A stretch of 64,000 nt of DNA from Vicinamibacteria bacterium (GTDB lineage Bacteria > Acidobacteriota > Vicinamibacteria > Vicinamibacterales > JAENWD01), in assembly GCA_016650245.1 (NCBI GenBank), contig JAENWD010000139.1:6082-70081 (forward strand). The letters run 5' to 3'. The notes below the pieces were generated by a model. That model ran no database searches. It saw nothing but the letters and a program-made list of their open reading frames with translations, and was not told the DNA's origin. This document shows, piece by piece, positions 5,329 through 61,703 of the stretch. Position 1 is the first letter of the stretch. Each line of letters begins with the position of its first letter. The position numbers were made by a program, and so were the translations under genes.

Positions 5329-6510
5329 ATGCCGCCGCTGATTTTTCGAAAGGGCCTCGACCTCAAGGACGCTGTCGCCGGGCAGCTTGCCCGGAACTAC
5401 CACAGCGCCCTGGTAGGGGCGATCAAAGAGGCGGGCTATCGCTATCAGGCCGGACGGCTCGAAGTGCACCTGGCGCGTGAGTTCGGGTTCTGCTACGGCG
5501 TGGATCGCGCCGTCGACTACGCCTATCAGGCGCGCACGCGGTTTCCGGACCAGACGGTCTTTCTGACCGGCGAGATCATTCACAACCCGCACGTCAACGA
5601 CAAGCTGCGCGCGCTGGGGATCCGCTTTCTCAGCGACGCAGGCCAGACGTTTGAACGCCTGACGGCCGACGACGTCGTGATTCTGCCCGCCTTTGGCGTG
5701 ACGATCGAGATGCTGGCCGCCCTGTCGGCGCGCAGCTGCACGCTGGTCGACACCACGTGCGGATCGGTGCTCAACGTCTGGAAAAACGTCAAGCGCTACG
5801 CACAGGACGGCCTGACATCGGTCATCCACGGCAAGCACTGGCACGAAGAGACGCAGGCGACGGCGTCTCAGGCCACACAGTACCCCGGTGGCCGATATCT
5901 GGTCGTCTACAACAAAGACGAAGCCACCGACGTCTGCACCTACATCCGGCACGGCGGCAACGCCCGCGCGTTTCTTGAACGATTCAACGACGCGGCGTCG
6001 CCCGGCTTCGATCCCGACATCGACCTGGGCCGCATCGGCCTGGCCAACCAGACGACGATGCTGATGTCCGAGTCGGTCGAGATCGGCGAGATGTTCCGCG
6101 AGGCGATGCGCGATCGCTTTGGCGAGCAGGACCTTGGCCATCGCTATCGCGCCTTTGACACGATCTGCAGCGCCACGCAGGATCGACAGGACGCCGTGAT
6201 TCGCCTGCTGGCCGACGAGCGCCTCGACCTGATGGTGGTCATCGGCGGCTACAACAGCAGTAACACCTGCAACCTCGCGCACATTTGCGCCGAGCACGTG
6301 CCGACCTACCACATCGCGGACCCGGCCTGTCTGGTCTCGCGCCTGCTGATTCGGCACAAACCGGTCGGTCAGCCCGATGAGATCGAAACCGGCGGCTGGC
6401 TGCCTGCCAGCGGGGCCCTGCGAATCGGACTCACCTCGGGCGCCTCCACCCCAGACAACCTGGTCGAGCGTGTCGTCCGCACGCTCGACGGCTTCGCCAA
6501 TCCCAACTGA
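5329..6510 (+). CDS. ispH: 4-hydroxy-3-methylbut-2-enyl diphosphate reductase, long (cyanobacterial/plant-like) form
   Basis: LAREFGFCYGVDRAV, TCGSVLNVWK and IGGYNSSNT motifs of LytB/IspH. 393 aa. Confidence 0.9.
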   Translation: MPPLIFRKGLDLKDAVAGQLARNYHSALVGAIKEAGYRYQAGRLEVHLAREFGFCYGVDRAVDYAYQARTRFPDQTVFLTGEIIHNPHVNDKLRALGIRFLSDAGQTFERLTADDVVILPAFGVTIEMLAALSARSCTLVDTTCGSVLNVWKNVKRYAQDGLTSVIHGKHWHEETQATASQATQYPGGRYLVVYNKDEATDVCTYIRHGGNARAFLERFNDAASPGFDPDIDLGRIGLANQTTMLMSESVEIGEMFREAMRDRFGEQDLGHRYRAFDTICSATQDRQDAVIRLLADERLDLMVVIGGYNSSNTCNLAHICAEHVPTYHIADPACLVSRLLIRHKPVGQPDEIETGGWLPASGALRIGLTSGASTPDNLVERVVRTLDGFANPN

Positions 6511-6631: not shown

Positions 6632-7093
6632 GTGTCTTTCCTGTCGTTTCGTCGTCGTCTCCTGCCAGGGCTGCTGGCGCTTGCCAGCGTCGTGGCCGGG
6701 ACGCTGCCGGTCGGCGCCGGGCAGGGCGGCAAGTTCAAGTGGTGGCAATCCGAGCGCTTCGTGCAGGAACTGGGCCTGACGCGCGAGCAGTCGGCCCGCA
6801 TCGAAGAGGTCTTTCAGGCCAGCTGGCCGGCCCTGCACGCGGCCAAGGCCGATCTGGACCGCCTCGAGACCGATCTGTCGCATCTGATCGGAGAAGGCAC
6901 CGCCAGCGAGGCCAGGGTGCTGCAGCAGATCGACCGCGTCGAGGCGTCGAGAAGCGCGATGGGCCGTACCCGCTCCCTGATGCTGTACCGGATGCACCGG
7001 CTGCTCACATCCGATCAGCGCGTGAAACTCAAGGCGCTGTATGAGGCCGTCGAGCGCGAGAAGGCTCGGCACCAGGACGCCCGGCCGAAGTGA
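6632..7093 (+). CDS. Periplasmic Spy/CpxP-family (LTXXQ) protein
   Basis: GTG start, signal peptide, two LTxxQ motifs (LTREQ, LTSDQ) and coiled helical sequence. Confidence 0.7.
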   Translation: MSFLSFRRRLLPGLLALASVVAGTLPVGAGQGGKFKWWQSERFVQELGLTREQSARIEEVFQASWPALHAAKADLDRLETDLSHLIGEGTASEARVLQQIDRVEASRSAMGRTRSLMLYRMHRLLTSDQRVKLKALYEAVEREKARHQDARPK

Positions 7094-32831: not shown

Positions 32832-32833
32832 GA

Positions 32834-32892
32834 ATTGCAGATTGCAGACTGCAGATTGACGATTACGGACTATTACGGATTGACGATTGGGT
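32834..32892. repeat. Tandem heptamer array: ATTGCAG ATTGCAG ACTGCAG ATTGACG ATTACGG ... ATTGACG
   Basis: Read directly. It begins 3 nt after the aldehyde DH stop and shares ATTGCAGATTGCAGA and TGCAGATTGACGA blocks with 61260-61286. Confidence 0.85.
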
Positions 32893-33042
32893 CGGCTTCC
32901 TGCGTGCCGTCAACCCGAGCCACACCGGAGCGTTCTCTGGCAAGGGCCTGCTCTAAAGATGCTATGGACATACCTCGACACCAGGCTGGTCTTTCCAACC
33001 GCGAACACGCCGAGCATTCCGACTTATTTCTGAATCATGGGC

Positions 33043-33066
33043 GGACTACGGACTCCAGACTACGGG
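33043..33066. repeat. Tandem heptamer array: GGACTAC GGACTCC AGACTAC
   Basis: Read directly. It ends 4 nt before the stop codon complement of the 33071..36202 gene. The unit is the reverse complement (circular permutation) of the GTCCGTA units at 41338-41365. Confidence 0.8.
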
Positions 33067-36681: not shown

Positions 36682-37545
36682 ATGCGTCGACGCGATTTGC
36701 TTTCCAGCCTCGTTGTGCTTCCCGCGCTGGGCAGGGTCGAGCGACTCGAAAACGTCCAGGGCACGGCCAATCGCCCCGGCTTGAAGCTCGGCGCCGTCAC
36801 CTACAACATCGCGAAGGATTGGGATGTTCCGACCCTTATTGCGAACCTCGCGGACGCGCGCTTCGACGCGGTGGAGCTGAGAACGACACATCGGCATGGC
36901 GTCGAGATCTCGCTCTCACCGGCCGCGCGAGTGGACGTCCGCAGGCGGTTCGACGACTCTCCAATCAGGATTGGCGGCCTGGGTACGACCTGCGAGTACC
37001 ACTCCCCTGACCTCGCCGTCGTCCGCAAGAATGTCGATGAGACCAAGGCCTGGGTGCAGCTTGCTCACGACATCGGCTCGCCGTCGGTGAAGGTACGCCC
37101 CAATGGGCTGCCAAAGGACGTCCCGGAGGAGAAGACTCTCGAGCAGATCGGCACAGCGCTCGCCGAGTGTGGCGCGTTTGCCCGCGAGCACGGCGTGACC
37201 GTGGAGCTCGAGGTGCACGGCGAGGGCTCGTCGCGGCTGCCCCGTATCCGCAAGATCCTGGACTACGGCGGGAACCATCCCGGCGTGCGTGTGTGCTGGA
37301 ACTCGAACCCGACGGATCTGCTGGATGGCGGCTTCGACGCGAACTTCGCCCTGGTGCGCGACCAGATCGGCCAGGTCCATATGCGCGACCTGTTCGTCGA
37401 AGACTACCCGTGGCGGCGGTTACTCACATCGCTGGCAGCGATGTCGTTCGAGGGCTACTGCTTCGCGGAGATTCCCGAGTCGCCCGATCCCGTGCGAGTG
37501 TTGAAGTACTTCCGAGCCGTGTTCCGCGCGTACCAAGACTTCTGA
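36682..37545 (+). CDS. Sugar phosphate isomerase/epimerase (TIM barrel) with TAT-type signal
   Basis: MRRRDLLSSLVVLPALG, then FDAVELR...VKVRPNG...ELEVHG pattern. ATG 36682 is preferred and ATG 36670 is possible. Track ORF 36550 overlaps the divergent gene. Confidence 0.8.
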   Translation: MRRRDLLSSLVVLPALGRVERLENVQGTANRPGLKLGAVTYNIAKDWDVPTLIANLADARFDAVELRTTHRHGVEISLSPAARVDVRRRFDDSPIRIGGLGTTCEYHSPDLAVVRKNVDETKAWVQLAHDIGSPSVKVRPNGLPKDVPEEKTLEQIGTALAECGAFAREHGVTVELEVHGEGSSRLPRIRKILDYGGNHPGVRVCWNSNPTDLLDGGFDANFALVRDQIGQVHMRDLFVEDYPWRRLLTSLAAMSFEGYCFAEIPESPDPVRVLKYFRAVFRAYQDF

Positions 37546-37583
37546 ACTCCCTGATATGCGGCTGTCAGACGCTGTGCGAGGAG

Positions 37584-37673
37584 TGGTGCCGGGGGCGGGA
37601 ATCGAACCCACACGCCTCTTTGGGAGGCCGCGGATTTTAAGTCCGCTGCGTCTGCCAGTTTCGCCACCCCGGC
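37584..37673 (-). tRNA. tRNA-Leu (anticodon UAA), CCA encoded
   Basis: Folded by hand. Acceptor GCCGGGG/CCCCGGC; anticodon stem GCGGA/TCCGC with loop CTTAAAA. Long variable arm GCCTC..GAGGC; T arm GTGGG-TTCGATT-CCCGC; discriminator A plus CCA. Confidence 0.93.
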
Positions 37674-37680
37674 CAACGTC

Positions 37681-37855
37681 GTGCCTGGTGCTCAGTGCTC
37701 AGTGCCAGGTGCGGTGCTGAGTGCCACGTGGTCAGTGCCTGGTGCGCCGAGCACGCAGTCGCCTCAGGCACTCGGCACGTCGCACTCGGCACAAGGCACC
37801 AGGCACATTGGCACCGCACCCAGCACCATGCACCGAGCACTCGGCACTATCAGTG
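37681..37855. repeat. About 170-bp inverted heptamer array: (GTGCNNN) about 10 units, then (GCACNNN) about 12 units
   Basis: Read directly. GTGCCTGGTGC occurs at 37681 and 37735 and its exact complement GCACCAGGCAC at 37796. The arms are imperfectly complementary around a centre near 37755. Confidence 0.85.
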
Positions 37856-38095
37856 GTCCGAGACCTCCGTCCACCCGGCCACGACTAACGGCGACTTCAA
37901 CGCCTCCGCACGCGCCAGCGCGCCGCTCAGGTCGGCGTAGGTCTGGCTGAACAGCAGGTCCGAGCCCTTCTCGATCGCCAGCCAGTAGCCGCTGGGGGGC
38001 TCGACGATGAAGCAGTGGAGATGGTCATCGTGACGGCTGAGACGCCAGAGGGTCACGGCTTCGCCACGCAGACGGATGAGGAGCTGCTCGTTCAT
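37850..38095 (-). CDS. Hypothetical small protein (81 aa)
   Basis: Strong third-position GC. The start lies 5 nt after the upstream ORF's stop. No family recognised. Confidence 0.55.
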   Translation of the reverse strand: MNEQLLIRLRGEAVTLWRLSRHDDHLHCFIVEPPSGYWLAIEKGSDLLFSQTYADLSGALARAEALKSPLVVAGWTEVSDH

Positions 38096-38100
38096 CGGTG

Positions 38101-38469
38101 TCAGTGCACCACAGGTGACTCACGATGCGGCAACCGATCGGCCGCCATCACGCGCGTGATCGTCGCTTCCAGTTCCACTGGGTCGACGTCGAAGGGCCCG
38201 GCCGCGGCTGCGCCAATCTGAATCTCGACGGCCACCGTGAATCCGCCGCCCTCGAACGGGCTGACGATCCAATTGAAGCCGCGCAGCGCCACGGCCCGAT
38301 TGCGATCGGCAGCCGGCGACTTCGCCCGATCCACGGCGCGCAGCAGTTCCTTCAGCAACACGCGCACCTCGTCGTCGGTCCACCCGCGCGGCGGGCCCAA
38401 CGGGGCCTCCACCACGTCGGTGATAGCAAAGTCGTTGCCCTTCAGCCAGACCTCGATCTCAAGGCGCAT
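38101..38469 (-). CDS. Hypothetical protein (122 aa)
   Basis: Strong third-position GC. TACAAT (38482-38477) lies 7 nt upstream of the ATG. No family recognised. Confidence 0.6.
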   Translation of the reverse strand: MRLEIEVWLKGNDFAITDVVEAPLGPPRGWTDDEVRVLLKELLRAVDRAKSPAADRNRAVALRGFNWIVSPFEGGGFTVAVEIQIGAAAAGPFDVDPVELEATITRVMAADRLPHRESPVVH

Positions 38470-38491
38470 CCGGCCGATTGTAGCATCTGTG

Positions 38492-38509
38492 CCGGAACTA
38501 AAGTTCCGG
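38492..38509 (-). terminator. Hairpin CCGGAAC-ttta-GTTCCGG after the thioredoxin-domain gene
   Basis: 7-bp perfect stem with a 4-nt loop, 55 nt after the stop at 38564 and just upstream of the TACAAT box. Confidence 0.4.
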
Positions 38510-38563
38510 CCTACGTACGCCCTACGGACCCGCGTCGCCAGCGCTCCGCCGGGACGCGCACCT

Positions 38564-40702
38564 TCAGCGCCCGAGTTGCTCCCTCAGTGCTTCGGGCGTC
38601 GTCGCCGGCGCCCGGCACGTGAAGTCGGCGCAGAGATACGCGGCCGCCTGTCCCTCGCCAGGCCCCATCGCAGCGACCAGGGGTAACGCTGCACCGAGTG
38701 CGTGCGCGTGGGCTGGCGAGACGGGCACTTCGACCAGAAACGGTCGATAGTGCTCCGCCGCCACCTCGCGCAGTGCAGCAGCCGATTCTGCCCCACCGTC
38801 GGCCTCGACGATAACCAGTTGGCCGATGCCGGCCTCCTCGCCCACCAGCGCCGACAGCACCAGCGGCACCGCGCGCGCGTACTCGCCCAGCCGCGTGCCG
38901 AACCGCGCGATCGAATGGGTGATGCGAGCGGTGCGCTCGGCGTCCGGCGTCAGATGCGTCAGCACCTGCAGATTGAGCAGCGCCAGCGCCGTCGGCGACG
39001 GCTCGGCGCCGTCGTAATCTTCCTTCGACCGGATGAGCACCGTCGGATCTTCACCAGTCGTGCTGAACCAGCCGCCGTCGATCGGATCGTAGAACCGCTG
39101 GTCAAGGACCGACTGCAACCGATCGGCCCAGCGCAGCCACTGGGGGTCGCCGTCGGCCTGGAACAGCTCCAGAAGGCCGAACGTCAGCGCGGCGTAGTCC
39201 TCCGCATAACCGTCCACGGCGGCGTCTCCGTCCCTGAAGCGCCGTAACAGCACCGCGCGATCGTCGTCCCATAATTGGTCGCGCAGGAAACCGGCCGCGC
39301 GTTGCGCCGTCACCAGATGCGCGGCCGCAGTCTCGCGCAGGCCGAACCGGCGTGCGCGCAGCACACGCGCGGCACGCGCGAAGGCCGCGATCATCAAGCC
39401 GTTCCACGCCGCCAGCACCTTGTCATCCAGATGAGGCCGCGGGCGGTCCAGCCGCGCGGCAAACAGCGCGAGGCGCGCATGGGCAAGCGTGTCGGCGACG
39501 TCGTCGGAGGTCCGACCAGTCTGGGCGACGATATCGTCCACCGACGCGGCGGTGTAGAGCAGATTCATCCCGGTGAACTCGCCCTGCGGATCAAACGGGG
39601 CGTTGCCGCCCTCTTCCACGCCAAGGCGGGCCGCCACGACGTCGGCGTCGCTGCCCACCACCTGGCGCAGTTCGCTGGCGCTCCAGGTATAGAAGGCCCC
39701 CTCGACCTTGTGGCCGTGGGGCGGCGCGCCTGGCGGCAGGCTGTCGGCGTCCTCCGCGGAATAGAACCCGCCATCAGGATGCGTCAGCTCGCGGCCCACG
39801 TACTGCAGCGTGTCGTCGGCGACCTGCGCGAAGAACCGGTCGCCGGTGGCTTGCGCGGCTTCGAGGTACGCCAGCACGAGCTGCGCCTGGTCGTACAACA
39901 TCTTCTCGAAATGCGGGACGCGCCAGGCCTCGTCCACCGAGTAGCGGTGAAACCCGCCGCCGACGTGGTCGCGCATACCACCCAGCGCCATCGCGCGCAG
40001 GGCGTGAAGAGCCAGATCGCGAGGCACTGGCTCGTTGGTCCGGGCGTGTTCGCGCAGCAGGAACAGCAGCTCGCTGGGCCGAGGAAACTTCGGTGCGCTG
40101 CCAAAGCCGCCATGCCGTGCGTCGTAGGATTGGGCAAACGAGGCGACGCCGCGCGCCAGCACGTCGGGCGCCGGGGCGGCCGTGCCTCCGGGGCTGGCGG
40201 TCGCCGACTCGCGCATCCGGCGCACCAACTCGGTGGCCGACAGTTCGATCCGCGCGCGCTCGTCGCGCCACGCGCGCGCGATGGCCTGCAGCACTTCGAC
40301 AAACCCAGGCCGGTTGTACCGCGACTCAGGCGGAAAGTATGTGCCGCCGAAAAACGGCTTCAGCTGCGGCGTCAGCCACACGCTCATCGGCCACCCGCCG
40401 GCACCGGTGGTCGCCTGGACGAAAGACATGTAGACGCGGTCCACATCCGGACGCTCTTCGCGGTCGACCTTGATCGACACAAACGACTGGTTGAGGACGT
40501 CGGCCACCGACTCCTGCTCGAACGACTCGTGCTCCATCACGTGGCACCAGTGACAGGTCGAGTAGCCCACCGACAAAAAGATCGGTTTGTCTTCAGCACG
40601 CGCCCGCGCAAAGGCCTCGTCACCCCACGGATACCAGTCCACGGGGTTCTGCGCGTGCTGCAGCAGGTACGGGCTCTTCTCGGCGGCGAGGCGGTTGGGC
40701 AT
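38564..40702 (-). CDS. Thioredoxin-domain protein, YyaL/SPATA20-like (DUF255 plus six-hairpin glycosidase-like domain)
   Basis: [24 protein letters not shown]...[21 protein letters not shown] is the family signature. 712 aa. Confidence 0.88.
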
Positions 40703-40716
40703 GGGAGACCATTATG

Positions 40717-40792
40717 CCTTCTGACTTCTGCCCTCGGCCCTCAGACTCTGCGAATCTGCGGAATCCACCCGAAGGCTGAAGGCCGCAGGCCG
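40717..40792. repeat. Paired short tandem units in a divergent spacer: CTTCTGA CTTCTGC CCTCGGC CCTCAGA ... CTGCGAAT CTGCGGAAT ... GAAGGCT GAAGGCC GCAGGCC
   Basis: Read directly. The left CTTC-units and right GAAGG-units are roughly complementary (CTTCTGACTTC versus reverse complement CTTCAGCCTTC). Confidence 0.75.
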
Positions 40793-40815
40793 ATCCCCCG
40801 TGATATACATCTCCC

Positions 40816-41352
40816 ATGACCGACGAGCAGAAGCCGCGGCGCGTGGCCGTGCTGCTGGAGGACGAGTTCGAAGACAGCGAAGTCACCGGCCCGGTGGAGC
40901 GCCTGCGTGCTGCGGGCCTGGAGGTCGTGCTCGTGGGTCCTCTTGCCGGCCACACCTACACCGGTAAGAAAGGCACAGCCATCGTCGCCGAATTGGCCGC
41001 CGGCAAGGCTCGCGCGCGCGACTTCGATGCGGTCGTCGTGCCAGGCGGACACGCTCCCGATCGCATGCGGATGCGACACGCGATGGTCGATCTGGTGCGC
41101 GACATGATCGCCGCCAACAAGCCCGTGGCCGCGATCTGCCACGGCCCGCAGTTGCTGATCTCGGTCAACGCACTGCGGGGACGGACTGTCACCTGCTGGC
41201 CGTCGATCGCCATCGACGTCAAGAACGCCGGCGGCCTCTACGTTGACAAACCCGTCGTCGTTGACGGCCCCGTGATCACGTCCCGCAAGCCCGATGACAT
41301 CCCCTTCTTCAGCGACGCGATCATCGCCGCGCTGAAAGTCCGTAGTCCGTAG
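40816..41352 (+). CDS. DJ-1/PfpI-family protein (class I glutamine amidotransferase-like)
   Basis: VVVPGGHAP and AAICHGPQLL (nucleophile elbow Cys-His) motifs. 178 aa. Confidence 0.88.
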   Translation: MTDEQKPRRVAVLLEDEFEDSEVTGPVERLRAAGLEVVLVGPLAGHTYTGKKGTAIVAELAAGKARARDFDAVVVPGGHAPDRMRMRHAMVDLVRDMIAANKPVAAICHGPQLLISVNALRGRTVTCWPSIAIDVKNAGGLYVDKPVVVDGPVITSRKPDDIPFFSDAIIAALKVRSP

Positions 41353-41365
41353 TCCGCAGTCCGTG
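41338..41365. repeat. Tandem heptamer array: GTCCGTA GTCCGTA GTCCGCA GTCCGTG
   Basis: Read directly. It encodes the last residues (VRSP) and the TAG stop of the DJ-1/PfpI gene and fills most of the 22-nt spacer to the next ATG. Confidence 0.85.
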
Positions 41366-41374
41366 TAGCCAGCC

Positions 41375-42316
41375 ATGCGCATCGGCATCGACCTGGGCGG
41401 CACCAAGATCGAAGGGATCGTGCTCGACGACACCGGCGCGGTCCGCTTTCGGGAGCGACGCGCCACGCCCCGCGGCGACTACGACGGCACAATCGAGGCC
41501 TTGGTCGATCTGGTCGCGGCGGCGGAGATGGCCATCGGCCACACAGCCACCGTCGGCATCGGCATGCCCGGCGCGATCTCACCGGCGACTGGCATGGTGA
41601 AAAACGCGAACTCCACGTGGCTGATCGGCCGGACGCTCGACCGCGATCTGGAAGCGCGCCTCGGGCGGCCCGTGCGGCTCGCCAACGACGCCAACTGCTT
41701 CGCGCTGTCAGAGGCCAGTGACGGCGCCGCCGCGGGCGCCCCGGTGGTGTTTGGCGTGATCGTCGGCACCGGATGCGGCGGCGGCGTGGTCGTGCACGGG
41801 CACGTGCTTACCGGACCCAACGCGATCGCCGGCGAATGGGGCCACAATCCTCTGCCGTGGCCCGCGGCCGACGAGCTGCCGGGGCCAGAGTGCTACTGCG
41901 GCAAGCGCGGTTGCCTCGAGACGTACCTTTCGGGCCCGGGCCTTGCCCGCGACTACGCCGCGTGCGCCGGGGTCGACCCCACCAAAATCAAAGGCGCCAC
42001 CGTCGTCGCCTGCGCCGCCGCTGGCGACCGCCATGCCATCGCGGCCCTCGATCGCTACGCGCATCGGCTCGCGCGAGGACTGGCCACCGTTATCAACACG
42101 ATCGACCCCGACGTGATCGTGCTGGGCGGCGGTGTGTCAAACGTCACGATGCTGTACGACGCCGTGCCACGCTGGCTCGACCAGTTCGTCTTCTCTGATC
42201 ACGTCGCGACGCGGATCGTGCCCCCGATGCACGGGGATTCCAGCGGCGTCCGCGGGGCGGCGTGGCTGTGGCCCCAGGGTCATCAGGCCACAGGCCTCGA
42301 GTCGCCGGGGCGCTAG
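41375..42316 (+). CDS. ROK-family sugar kinase (fructokinase/Mak- or NagK-like)
   Basis: MRIGIDLGGTKIE, LANDANCFALSE, GTGCGGG, GEWGH and zinc motif CYCGKRGCLE. Confidence 0.88.
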   Translation: MRIGIDLGGTKIEGIVLDDTGAVRFRERRATPRGDYDGTIEALVDLVAAAEMAIGHTATVGIGMPGAISPATGMVKNANSTWLIGRTLDRDLEARLGRPVRLANDANCFALSEASDGAAAGAPVVFGVIVGTGCGGGVVVHGHVLTGPNAIAGEWGHNPLPWPAADELPGPECYCGKRGCLETYLSGPGLARDYAACAGVDPTKIKGATVVACAAAGDRHAIAALDRYAHRLARGLATVINTIDPDVIVLGGGVSNVTMLYDAVPRWLDQFVFSDHVATRIVPPMHGDSSGVRGAAWLWPQGHQATGLESPGR

Positions 42317-42340
42317 CCTCAGGCCTCAGGCGCAGCTCAG
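42316..42340. repeat. Heptamer array GCCTCAG GCCTCAG GCGCAG CTCAG between convergent stops
   Basis: Read directly. It starts at the last base of the ROK TAG and includes the TCA (TGA complement) stop of the yihY-like gene. Confidence 0.8.
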
Positions 42341-54478: not shown

Positions 54479-54491
54479 ACGAGCCCTTCCA

Positions 54492-54519
54492 GCCTCAGGC
54501 CTCAGGCCTCGGGCCTCAC
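54492..54519. repeat. Tandem heptamer array GCCTCAG GCCTCAG GCCTCGG GCCTCAC between convergent stops
   Basis: Read directly. The last unit contains the TCA (TGA complement) stop of the NHL-type gene. The unit is the same as at 42316-42340. Confidence 0.85.
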
Positions 54520-61230: not shown

Positions 61231-61249
61231 GGAGGCGATTAGACAGACG

Positions 61250-61340
61250 ATTGCAGATCATTGCAGATTGCAGATTGACGACTACGAAGCGTCGGGTTGC
61301 ACCCCGGCGGTCCGTAATCGGCAATCGGCAATCGTCATTG
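61250..61340. repeat. Inverted heptamer arrays: ATTGCAG x3 plus ATTGACG, then CGGCAAT x2 (complement ATTGCCG)
   Basis: Read directly. Left arm GATTGCAGATTGCAGATT against right arm AATCGGCAATCGGCAATC (18 positions, 2 mismatches). The right end contains the stop (TCA) of the 61335..61703 gene. Confidence 0.85.
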
Positions 61341-61703
61341 GGCAGCCGCCGCCTTCTTCACGACGTACTCAACCGTGCCCCAGTCACCCGTGGCCTTGAT
61401 GGCGATCTCGTCGCCGGTGGCGTTCACTTTGGCTTCGTGGGTGATCGTGCCGCCTTCGAGCGCGACGTCAAACGTCAGCACGTCGCCCGCGACCTTGCCG
61501 TTGCTGATCTCCTGCGTGCCCATCGCGCTGGCCACGTTGCCCGTCAAGGCTTCGCCTTCGGCCTTGAACTCGAAGGTCAGCTCAATCGGGCCGTTGGGCG
61601 TGTCAACACTCCCGATCCATTTTCCCGTGACATCGCCGGCCAGGGCAACGGCCGCCATCCCAACCGTGATCACGAACGCAAGCAGGGCACGACGCAGCAT
61701 CAC
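61335..61703 (-). CDS. Small secreted hypothetical protein (about 121 aa)
   Basis: Signal peptide (ALLAFVITVGMAAVALA) followed by a beta-rich GKW... sequence. AAGGAGA lies 7 nt upstream of ATG 61700 (GTG 61703 in the track). Confidence 0.65.
   Translation of the reverse strand: MMLRRALLAFVITVGMAAVALAGDVTGKWIGSVDTPNGPIELTFEFKAEGEALTGNVASAMGTQEISNGKVAGDVLTFDVALEGGTITHEAKVNATGDEIAIKATGDWGTVEYVVKKAAAAQ

Follow-up and report, generated by a model that had tools for sequence, protein, structure and literature searches.

Inverted heptanucleotide repeat arrays between a small open reading frame and the tRNA-Leu(UAA) gene of a Vicinamibacteria bacterium

In the present study, we analysed a 64,000-nucleotide stretch of contig JAENWD010000139.1 of a Vicinamibacteria bacterium (Acidobacteriota), hereafter called the window, and found an inverted heptamer-repeat element at positions 37681-37847, between the stop codon of an open reading frame (ORF) of 81 amino acids (aa) and the tRNA-Leu(UAA) gene. 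A (GTGCNNN)n array faces an (NNNGCAC)n array in this element, and the repeats are of a class that is typical of the source genome. Our favoured explanation, to which we assign a probability of roughly 0.5, is that this inverted pair of heterogeneous heptanucleotide simple sequence repeats (SSRs) probably forms an RNA hairpin in a transcript shared by the ORF and the tRNA, where it possibly protects the 3' end of the mRNA. The element is fast-evolving and dispensable and belongs to an already described class; it is not a dedicated tRNA element.

The heptamer element and its predicted fold

Read on the plus strand, the element has a left arm of about 10 GTGCNNN units and, after it, a right arm of 12-13 NNNGCAC units. 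Each unit consists of the conserved core and three variable bases, and the units are therefore heterogeneous around the core. Exact GTGC cores were present at nine positions (37681, 37688, 37695, 37702, 37709, 37714, 37721, 37735, and 37742), with a GTGG variant at 37728, and GCAC cores at 13 positions (37751, 37768, 37775, 37782, 37789, 37796, 37803, 37811, 37816, 37823, 37830, 37837, and 37844). The spacing of the cores is 7 nucleotides (nt) for most units, and Tandem Repeats Finder reported a period of 7 in both arms. The left arm contained no GCAC and the right arm no GTGC, where about 0.5-0.6 per arm would be expected from the window-wide frequencies. The three-unit pattern GTGCNNNGTGCNNNGTGC, searched with at most one mismatch, had 14 matches in the 64 kb, every one of them inside 37681-37847; dinucleotide shuffles gave 1.95 +/- 1.53 matches, and none of 100 shuffles reached 14. 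Repeat-finding tools located GTGCCTGGTGC at 37681 and 37735 and its exact complement at 37796-37806, and recovered the inverted repeats I1-I5 and I8-I10 in the element. The arms are unequal in the sense of the transcript, with 12 units in the 5' arm and 8-9 in the 3' arm. The parts of the element, in transcript order, are as follows:

37768-37847, minus strand: 5' arm of the sense transcript, 12 GUGCNNN units (NNNGCAC on the plus strand), beginning 2 nt past the stop of the 81-aa ORF
37747-37767, minus strand: central non-repetitive part, CCGAGCACGCAGTCGCCTCAG on the plus strand
37681-37746, minus strand: 3' arm of the sense transcript, 8-9 GCACNNN units (GTGCNNN on the plus strand), including one 5-nt and one 14-nt unit
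37674-37680, minus strand: single-stranded linker GACGUUG of 7 nt from the hairpin foot to the mature tRNA 5' end, the RNase P site being placed at the tRNA boundary

A first-pass annotation, made from the letters alone, had described a 170-base imperfect palindrome of GTGCNNN/GCACNNN heptamers in which one sequence occurs twice on the left and its exact complement on the right. The sequence is as described and the statistics of the element are robust, and the repeated sequence is GTGCCTGGTGC with its complement at the positions given above. The annotated unit counts are slightly corrected here, to the 12 units of the 5' arm and the 8-9 of the 3' arm. The element does begin after the stop of the 81-aa ORF, with the first core 2 nt past the TGA (37850-37852), but the gap to the tRNA is 7 nt (37674-37680) and not 8.

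The region 37674-37860 was folded on both strands. As RNA, the minus strand gave -117 kcal/mol (-116.9), a z score of -7.8 against dinucleotide shuffles, which average about -83 kcal/mol, and the plus strand gave -107.8 kcal/mol (z -7.0). As single-stranded DNA, with DNA parameters, the fold was -55.8 kcal/mol (z -4.65). No dinucleotide shuffle folded as well as the native sequence in any of the three cases, and the long bulged hairpin predicted by the first-pass annotation is thus much more stable on either strand than its composition would give. The minus-strand fold contains 65 pairs with 37847/37681 as the outermost pair, and its minimum-energy form has the apical loop at 37764-37773, which is off-centre because the arms are unequal. 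The number of G.U pairs was 10 in the minus-strand fold and 5 in the plus-strand fold. Of the two strands, the minus strand has the lower folding energy, and it is in this orientation that both the 81-aa ORF and the tRNA are encoded.

The specificity of this fold was lower when whole heptamer units were permuted within each arm and the heptamer composition was kept. The 300 unit shuffles had a mean of -109.0 kcal/mol with a standard deviation of 4.4, so that the native value of -116.9 corresponds to a z score of only -1.8 and 18 of the 300 folded as well. The native sequence is thus only slightly better than shuffles of the same heptamer composition, which comes close to the outcome that the first-pass annotation had named as refuting its reading. 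Two relatives (designated L003 and L169) behaved like the window in this analysis, and a third, L001, gave a stronger result (z -5.0) because a separate palindrome lies in its centre. A flipped control, in which the 3' half was reverse-complemented to give direct arrays, still folded with -91.0 kcal/mol, since two G.U pairs allow GUGC to pair with itself. Unit order hardly affects the fold, and its stability therefore comes from opposed arrays with compatible cores and not from exact register. The hairpin is real but register-degenerate, and a precisely matched palindrome is not needed for it.

The immateriality of unit order would also suit a neutral by-product, that is, selfish or neutral simple-sequence DNA that spreads where coding constraint is absent and forms a hairpin only incidentally, with no effect on the ORFs or the tRNA. 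We regard this as possible, though on the unlikely side, and its further evidence is given with the orthologous spacers and the other arrays below. A hairpin of -117 kcal/mol in a transcript is unlikely to be without consequence, which argues against it.

Orthologous spacers, neighbouring genes and probable co-transcription

The locus of the 81-aa ORF was compared across more than 40 contigs, and more than 20 orthologous spacers were examined. Spacers between an adjacent ORF and tRNA were from 34 nt (in L170) to 196 nt long. The contents of the spacers were as follows:

Window, L001 (196 nt), L003 (130 nt): GTGC/GCAC palindromes with a common irregular 'GTGCG GTGC' unit
L169, L174: other heptamer palindromes, z -7.8 and -8.1
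L005: about 10 direct GTGCNNNN octamers, without an inverted arm
L002, L006, L167, L173: degenerate arrays
L007, L008, L170-L172: short hairpins, in L007, L008, and L170, or no significant structure
L004, L011, L013, L044: an additional gene and an ordinary hairpin

The irregular unit common to the window, L001, and L003 shows that their palindromes are homologous. In L002, L006, L172, L171, and L007, no significant structure was found between the 81-aa ORF and an intact tRNA, and the region upstream of the tRNA was also without significant structure in L014, L021, and L035. A conserved hairpin at the orthologous spacer was rejected, since z was near 0 in several relatives. These relatives keep tRNA-Leu(UAA) without a structured spacer, and conservation of a strong hairpin is thus not required for this tRNA. 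The proposal of the first-pass annotation that the element insulates or processes the tRNA transcript finds no support as a conserved role, given spacers of 34-196 nt and several unstructured relatives. The great variation in length and content, down to unstructured spacers, favours the neutral by-product.

All seven repeat-type spacers at this locus gave a more stable fold for the sense than for the antisense strand; the difference was 2 to 25 kcal/mol, and the sense folds had more G.U pairs. The sense and antisense folds (kcal/mol) were as follows:

Window: -116.9 vs -107.8
L001: -145.8 vs -142.7
L003: -89.4 vs -75.4
L169: -79.2 vs -76.9
L174: -100.1 vs -75.1
L005: -60.9 vs -36.1
L173: -61.1 vs -43.9

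This advantage of the sense strand is the pattern expected of an RNA-level structure in the ORF/tRNA orientation, and its presence in every repeat-type spacer speaks against a neutral by-product.

The neighbouring features of the element, all of them on the minus strand, are given below:

37584-37673, minus strand: tRNA-Leu with anticodon UAA (ARAGORN; Rfam RF00005, 55.2 bits)
37850-38095, minus strand: 81-aa ORF, a conserved gene with 74 homologues and a third-position G+C content of 0.89
38101-38469, minus strand: 122-aa ORF, conserved partner of the 81-aa ORF at a 5-nt gap, more than 300 homologues
38477-38485, minus strand: extended -10-like motif TGCTACAAT, lying upstream of the 122-aa ORF at 7 nt from its ATG

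The 122-aa product is 100% identical to the hypothetical protein JJE40_06830 of a Vicinamibacteria bacterium metagenome-assembled genome, and the 122-aa and 81-aa ORFs were adjacent in every case. Neither ORF had a Pfam, NCBIfam, or PADLOC family match. The AlphaFold model of the 81-aa protein contained four strands and a helix (mean predicted confidence, pLDDT, of 76), and no match to it in the PDB was better than E 0.086, with template modelling scores below 0.5. The tRNA-Leu(UAA) gene lay downstream of the 81-aa ORF and on the same strand in 26 of the 26 loci with enough sequence, at a distance of 34-1632 nt. A search of the whole window at the Rfam 15 gathering score returned the tRNA as the sole match.

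Partial duplicates of the tRNA-Leu 3' end were observed downstream of the tRNA in four relatives (L001 3593-3700, L002 4311-4420, L169 about 1975-2085, and L173 10869-11666). In L173, a phage-type integrase gene also lies downstream of the tRNA; the window has none. From the duplicates and the integrase of L173 it follows that tRNA-Leu(UAA) is an integration site of mobile elements in this clade.

The motif TGCTACAAT is, by its consensus and conservation, the probable promoter of a leaderless ORF-ORF-tRNA transcript. TG[CT]TACAAT before the 122-aa ORF was kept in 11 of 12 relatives, and the sequence further upstream was not conserved. The DUF255 and DJ-1 genes have similar motifs, CATAAT and ATATAC (about 40800-40812 and about 40703-40716), which precede the gene starts by 6-9 nt. 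Sigma-70-type -10 elements can therefore be recognised in this lineage, and the closeness of the motifs to the starts suggests that leaderless mRNAs are common in it. In the window, the 330 nt upstream of the tRNA contained no -10-like hexamer, and the same was true of 20 of 23 relatives. A scan of 37400-38700 for sigma-70 promoters and intrinsic terminators gave no match. The ORFs and the tRNA thus lie on the same strand with no -10-like hexamer between them and with a promoter-like motif before the 122-aa ORF, although the hairpin could itself terminate transcription. We favour one transcript, as the simplest reading, because there is no -10-like hexamer before the tRNA, because the scan gave no promoter or terminator, because the spacer is as short as 34 nt in a relative, because the motif stands before the 122-aa ORF, and because the order of ORF and tRNA was kept in all 26 loci with enough sequence.

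The hairpin might instead act as a terminator or insulator that ends the small-ORF operon, the tRNA being transcribed from a promoter of its own. It is very stable and begins right past the stop codon, as such a role would ask. In addition, a conserved GC-rich hairpin, GGCCGGAAC-TTT-AGTTCCGGC, follows the DUF255 gene at 38491-38511 (minus strand) without a U-tract, and this may be the usual form of terminators in this genome. We judge this role improbable, since a gap of 7 nt from the foot of the hairpin to the tRNA 5' end is too short for a promoter, and neither the spacer nor the 81-aa ORF contains a -10-like hexamer, though TAnAAT motifs are clear upstream of neighbouring genes. Spacers of down to 34 nt in relatives also argue against it. 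The hairpin is not of the intrinsic-terminator form, as it lacks a U-tract and is followed by GACGUUG and then by the tRNA, and the terminator scan was without a match.

In the favoured explanation, an RNA hairpin in an ORF-tRNA co-transcript, the arrays would have arisen, and would go on changing, by repeat expansion and contraction in a spacer on which no coding constraint acts. The process is likely to be slipped-strand mispairing, and copying from arm to arm by template switching is a further possibility. The co-transcript would probably run from the extended -10 promoter through the leaderless 122-aa ORF, the 81-aa ORF, and the repeat spacer to tRNA-Leu(UAA). Because the spacer lies inside this probable co-transcript, both arrays would be transcribed and folded, and they would form a long register-degenerate hairpin of about 65 bp, extending from 2 nt past the stop to 7 nt before the RNase P site. 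Once RNase P had released the tRNA, the upstream mRNA would end in a very stable stem-loop, which would slow 3'->5' exonucleases. The hairpin possibly also attenuates read-through into the tRNA.

Previous studies reported that the E. coli secG-leuU co-transcript is split by RNase P at the 5' end of the tRNA and that the secG mRNA then decays in less than 30 s (Mohanty and Kushner, 2008, PMC2241853). The present locus is similar in that a coding gene is followed by a tRNA-Leu gene, the two being probably co-transcribed here. It differs in the long hairpin between the ORF and the tRNA, which is absent from the E. coli transcript.

Several points weigh against this explanation. The repeats, the predicted fold with its strand asymmetry, and the fast turnover are shown, while co-transcription, RNase P cleavage, and any stabilising or attenuating effect are inferred. 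The hairpin is not conserved, since in several relatives the spacer between the retained ORF and tRNA is unstructured or very short, and any function is therefore dispensable or lineage-specific. Covariation among four orthologous palindromes (RNAalifold, covariation term -0.94 kcal/mol) is uninformative, because the alignment register of the repeats is ambiguous. The advantage of the sense strand could reflect a mutation bias, e.g., C->T on the non-template strand, or the G.U self-pairing of GUGC, since even direct arrays fold, as in the flipped control (-91 kcal/mol). The compensatory-looking differences between the window and L001 could equally stem from template switching at the DNA level.

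The rare TTA codon and tRNA-Leu(UAA)

The 81-aa ORF, which is directly upstream of the UUA-decoding tRNA, contains a rare leucine codon:

37886-37888, minus strand: TTA codon for Leu70 of the 81-aa ORF, 11 codons before the stop

TTA accounted for 14 of the 18,115 codons of the window (0.077%). Among 34 distinct orthologues of the 81-aa ORF (drawn from L001-L046 and L167-L174), TTA was found at Leu70 in 6 of 34 and at Leu71 in 8 of 18, that is, in 14 of the 34 overall. At the 13 other leucine columns it was found in 2 of 340 (Fisher p 9.5e-12, a value that ignores phylogeny). The codons next to the conserved TTA vary synonymously. The neighbouring DUF255 gene, used as a control, has three TTA codons; they were not conserved (0 of 4 orthologues at each site) and were dropped as a further link to the tRNA. 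The ORF upstream of each of the five strong heptamer palindromes had a TTA at codon 70 or codon 78.

Previous studies reported that UUA is very rare in the GC-rich genomes of Streptomyces, where bldA encodes tRNA-Leu(UAA) and TTA codons are regulatory (PMC2000904, PMC10732093). The present locus resembles the bldA system in having a very rare UUA that is positionally conserved in a particular gene. In Streptomyces, however, the TTA targets are not linked in cis to bldA, whereas at the present locus the ORF with the TTA directly precedes the tRNA gene. The conserved TTA suggests a cis-linked relationship between a rare codon and its tRNA that is reminiscent of the bldA-dependent TTA genes.

A possible consequence is autoregulation by sensing of UUA, in which translation of the UUA would depend on the tRNA encoded next to it. 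A ribosome stalled at the UUA, or one that terminates at a distance of 2 nt from the foot of the hairpin, would change how the slippery hairpin folds and hence the read-through, processing, or stability of the tRNA-Leu(UAA) precursor. The rarity of TTA in the window, its concentration at Leu70 and Leu71, the lack of conservation in DUF255, the synteny of the ORF and tRNA-Leu(UAA) in all 26 informative loci, and the TTA before all five strong palindromes are consistent with it. The conserved position of rare UUA codons has also been read as a sign of regulation in Streptomyces (PMC10732093). On the other hand, an antiterminator pairing between the 3' end of the ORF and the hairpin was not seen on inspection by eye, which allowed about 5 bp at most, and there is none in the 187-nt fold. 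The TTA is present without a palindrome in many relatives, some adjacent loci have neither, and the association of TTA with palindromes comes from phylogenetically clustered cases. A leader-peptide attenuator would be a short leader peptide with competing RNA structures, whereas here there is one conserved rare TTA in a conserved 81-aa protein, and no competing pairing was seen by eye. Classical attenuation was set aside, since no plausible antiterminator pairing beyond these few base pairs was seen by eye. Taken with this evidence, sensing of UUA has in our judgement a slim chance of being right.

In a wider form of this idea, both ORFs, tRNA-Leu(UAA), and the slippery heptamer hairpin between them and the tRNA would together make one cis-acting feedback unit of GC-rich Vicinamibacteria, a rare-codon switch that resembles bldA but is wired in cis. 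The UUA of the 81-aa ORF would be decodable by the tRNA that is encoded immediately downstream in the same transcript. The progress of the ribosome past the UUA would set how the register-degenerate hairpin folds, and the fold would in turn set the amount of tRNA precursor that is made, processed, or kept. We offer this unit as a speculation with low odds.

Heptamer arrays in the window, in other genomes and in known repeat classes

The G+C content of the window is 68.5%. A period of 7 was the dominant tandem period in the window that is not a multiple of the triplet, with 6 arrays against 0-2 for periods 5, 6, 8, 10, and 11. A 250-kb sample of Vicinamibacteria DNA had 20 arrays with a period of 7, against 3, 1, and 1 for periods 8, 10, and 11, and the remaining frequent periods were multiples of three. 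No second GTGC array was present in the 64-kb window. The other heptamer arrays of the window comprised ATTGCAG-type arrays at 32833 (32833-32890) and 61250, AGTCCGT-type arrays at 33042 (33042-33065) and 41335 (41335-41364), GCCTCAG arrays at 42316 (42316-42331) and 54488 (54488-54518), and one further array at 40771-40792. All of them are intergenic, they mostly touch or overlap stop codons or else fill short gaps between genes, and the ATTGCAG, AGTCCGT, and GCCTCAG families are each present at two loci. A second hairpin, at 61246-61336, contained ATTGCAG/ATTGACG arrays facing CGGCAAT/CGTCATT arrays with a GC-rich central stem (z -4.5 on the plus and -5.1 on the minus strand), and overlapped the stop of the minus-strand gene 61335-61703. 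The presence of arrays with other cores in many other intergenic gaps of the window again favours a neutral by-product.

Inverted arrays of the GATTACG/CAGATTA type were observed around a unique centre of about 250 nt downstream of a ROK kinase gene in L173 (about 5710-6105) and L174 (about 6048-6280), and the centre in L173 holds a long perfect palindrome. These arrays look MITE-like (miniature inverted-repeat transposable element) or structured-RNA-like. The orthologous site of the window has only two GCCTCAG units.

We also scanned across phyla for four consecutive GTGCNNN units, with one genome per species, and obtained at least 120 loci in many phyla. Among the matches listed, most GTGC arrays were one-armed and seven were strictly two-armed (L058, L090, L127, L140, L145, L156, and L157), in Acidobacteriota, Anaerolineales, and an uncultured rumen bacterium; L157 is the same locus as L004, on a contig labelled Vicinamibacteria in GTDB. 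Looser two-armed cases among the matches listed included a Hymenobacter. In 7 of the 7 strict cases among the matches listed the order was GTGC array, loop, and GCAC array, and the reverse order was not found, although the two orders are thermodynamically equivalent. Two-armed arrays were, among the matches listed, far commoner than independent arrays would allow, which together with the uniform arm order speaks against a neutral by-product. The orientation of the arrays relative to flanking genes showed no polarity (16 vs 12 among the matches listed, in a crude survey with crude gene calling), as a neutral by-product would have it.

The 890 kb around these loci contained 11 tRNAs. Among the matches listed, two arrays lay 7-9 nt upstream of a tRNA 5' end, placed as in the window, namely a two-armed GTGC array before tRNA-Trp in an Anaerolineales genome (L127, about 6322-6400) and a direct GTGC array before tRNA-Glu in an uncultured bacterium (L161, about 6781-6815). 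One further array was 84 nt away, and the others were further. The first-pass annotation had suggested looking for the element next to other tRNA genes. The window has a single tRNA, and the two loci named here do carry an array at that place, but enrichment near tRNAs was not clearly above chance, given that intergenic DNA is the only place for arrays as well as for tRNAs, and it was rejected as a finding. The fixed arm order and the arrays 7-9 nt upstream of other tRNAs could point to a recognised RNA or DNA element and not to passive repeats.

An element acting as DNA, either a cruciform-forming or protein-bound array or a mobile insertion of REP (repetitive extragenic palindromic), BIME (bacterial interspersed mosaic element), or MITE type beside the tRNA gene, was also considered. 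The single-stranded DNA fold (-55.8 kcal/mol, z -4.65), the MITE-like arrays of L173 and L174 around their centre of about 250 nt, with the long perfect palindrome of L173, and the fixed arm order in 7 of the 7 strict two-armed arrays among the matches listed, in several phyla, which hints at a directional process or protein, are in its favour. We consider it very improbable, as there is no second GTGC array in the 64 kb, no conserved terminal sequence, and no target-site duplication. The orthologous sites carry related and continuously varying arrays without a pattern of presence and absence, and an asymmetry between strands that depends on G.U pairs is not expected of a DNA structure. A MITE was rejected because no direct repeat flanks the element and the orthologous sites carry graded variants, not empty sites. 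A CRISPR array was considered and rejected. An assembly artefact was likewise rejected, as similar arrays are present in independent assemblies from different projects.

The REP and BIME sequences of enterobacteria are intergenic imperfect palindromes, often past the stop codons in operons, and their RNA stem-loops shield the upstream mRNA from 3' exonucleases. REPs are units of 20-40 nt with a fixed sequence, hundreds of copies, a conserved GTAG end, and a cognate REP-associated tyrosine transposase (RAYT). We propose REP and BIME as a functional analogy for the element, in the protection of the mRNA 3' end; the fixed 20-40-nt unit, the many copies, and the GTAG end of REPs are not seen in the 64 kb. 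Membership in REP/BIME was rejected, since the units are of 7 nt, there is no GTAG end, and no other GTGC array is present in the 64 kb.

The closest known class is that of the Xanthomonas heptamer repeats. The GGGANTN repeats of Xanthomonas are 89-93% intergenic and lie on average 28 nt past the upstream ORF (Rehm et al., 2015, PMC4692102). Each genome has 70-75 cases of two repeat sites arranged as an inverted pair that could form a stem-loop, and the length of the repeats differs between species while their type is kept (PMC4692102). Like the Xanthomonas GGGAATC/GGGANTN repeats, which have 2-26 units per array, the present arrays have 7-nt units with 4-5 conserved and 2-3 variable positions, an intergenic place near the 3' end of the upstream ORF, inverted pairing, and a length and sequence at the locus that vary between related species. 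They differ in that the core is GTGC and not a G-tract, so that no G-quadruplex is possible, and in the host phylum, which is Acidobacteriota. The present array pair is also longer, with about 22 units, and lies inside a probable ORF-tRNA transcript. The element has every feature of an inverted-pair intergenic heptamer SSR, namely tandem 7-nt units, heterogeneous units with a conserved core, a position past a stop, opposed arrays, variation at the locus, and an excess of period 7 in the window and in the 250 kb; its core and phylum are not those of Xanthomonas.

Heptanucleotide repeats are the commonest SSR class with longer units in many bacteria, according to Mrazek et al. (2007) as cited in PMC4679880. 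They are mostly intergenic, and polymerase slippage is their proposed origin (PMC4679880, PMC2700814). The cyanobacterial short tandemly repeated repetitive (STRR) sequences, the TAACTGA repeats, and the Geobacter arrays (PMC2700814) are mostly direct repeats of one heptamer, whereas the units here are heterogeneous around a 4-nt core and arranged as a palindrome. In the library searched, we found no paper on heptamer repeats in Acidobacteria/Acidobacteriota or Vicinamibacteria.

The palindrome by itself is ordinary, but it extends the poorly understood class of inverted-pair heptanucleotide repeats to soil Acidobacteriota and shows the speed of array turnover at a single orthologous site. Such repeats will mimic structured RNAs or terminators in genome scans, and because their pairing is register-degenerate, shuffles that preserve dinucleotides overstate the specificity of the fold. 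The greater value of the element is in its context, a conserved unit in which small ORFs, with a rare TTA at a conserved position, are joined to tRNA-Leu(UAA). This unit is a testable lead for feedback between a rare codon and its tRNA outside the actinomycetes.

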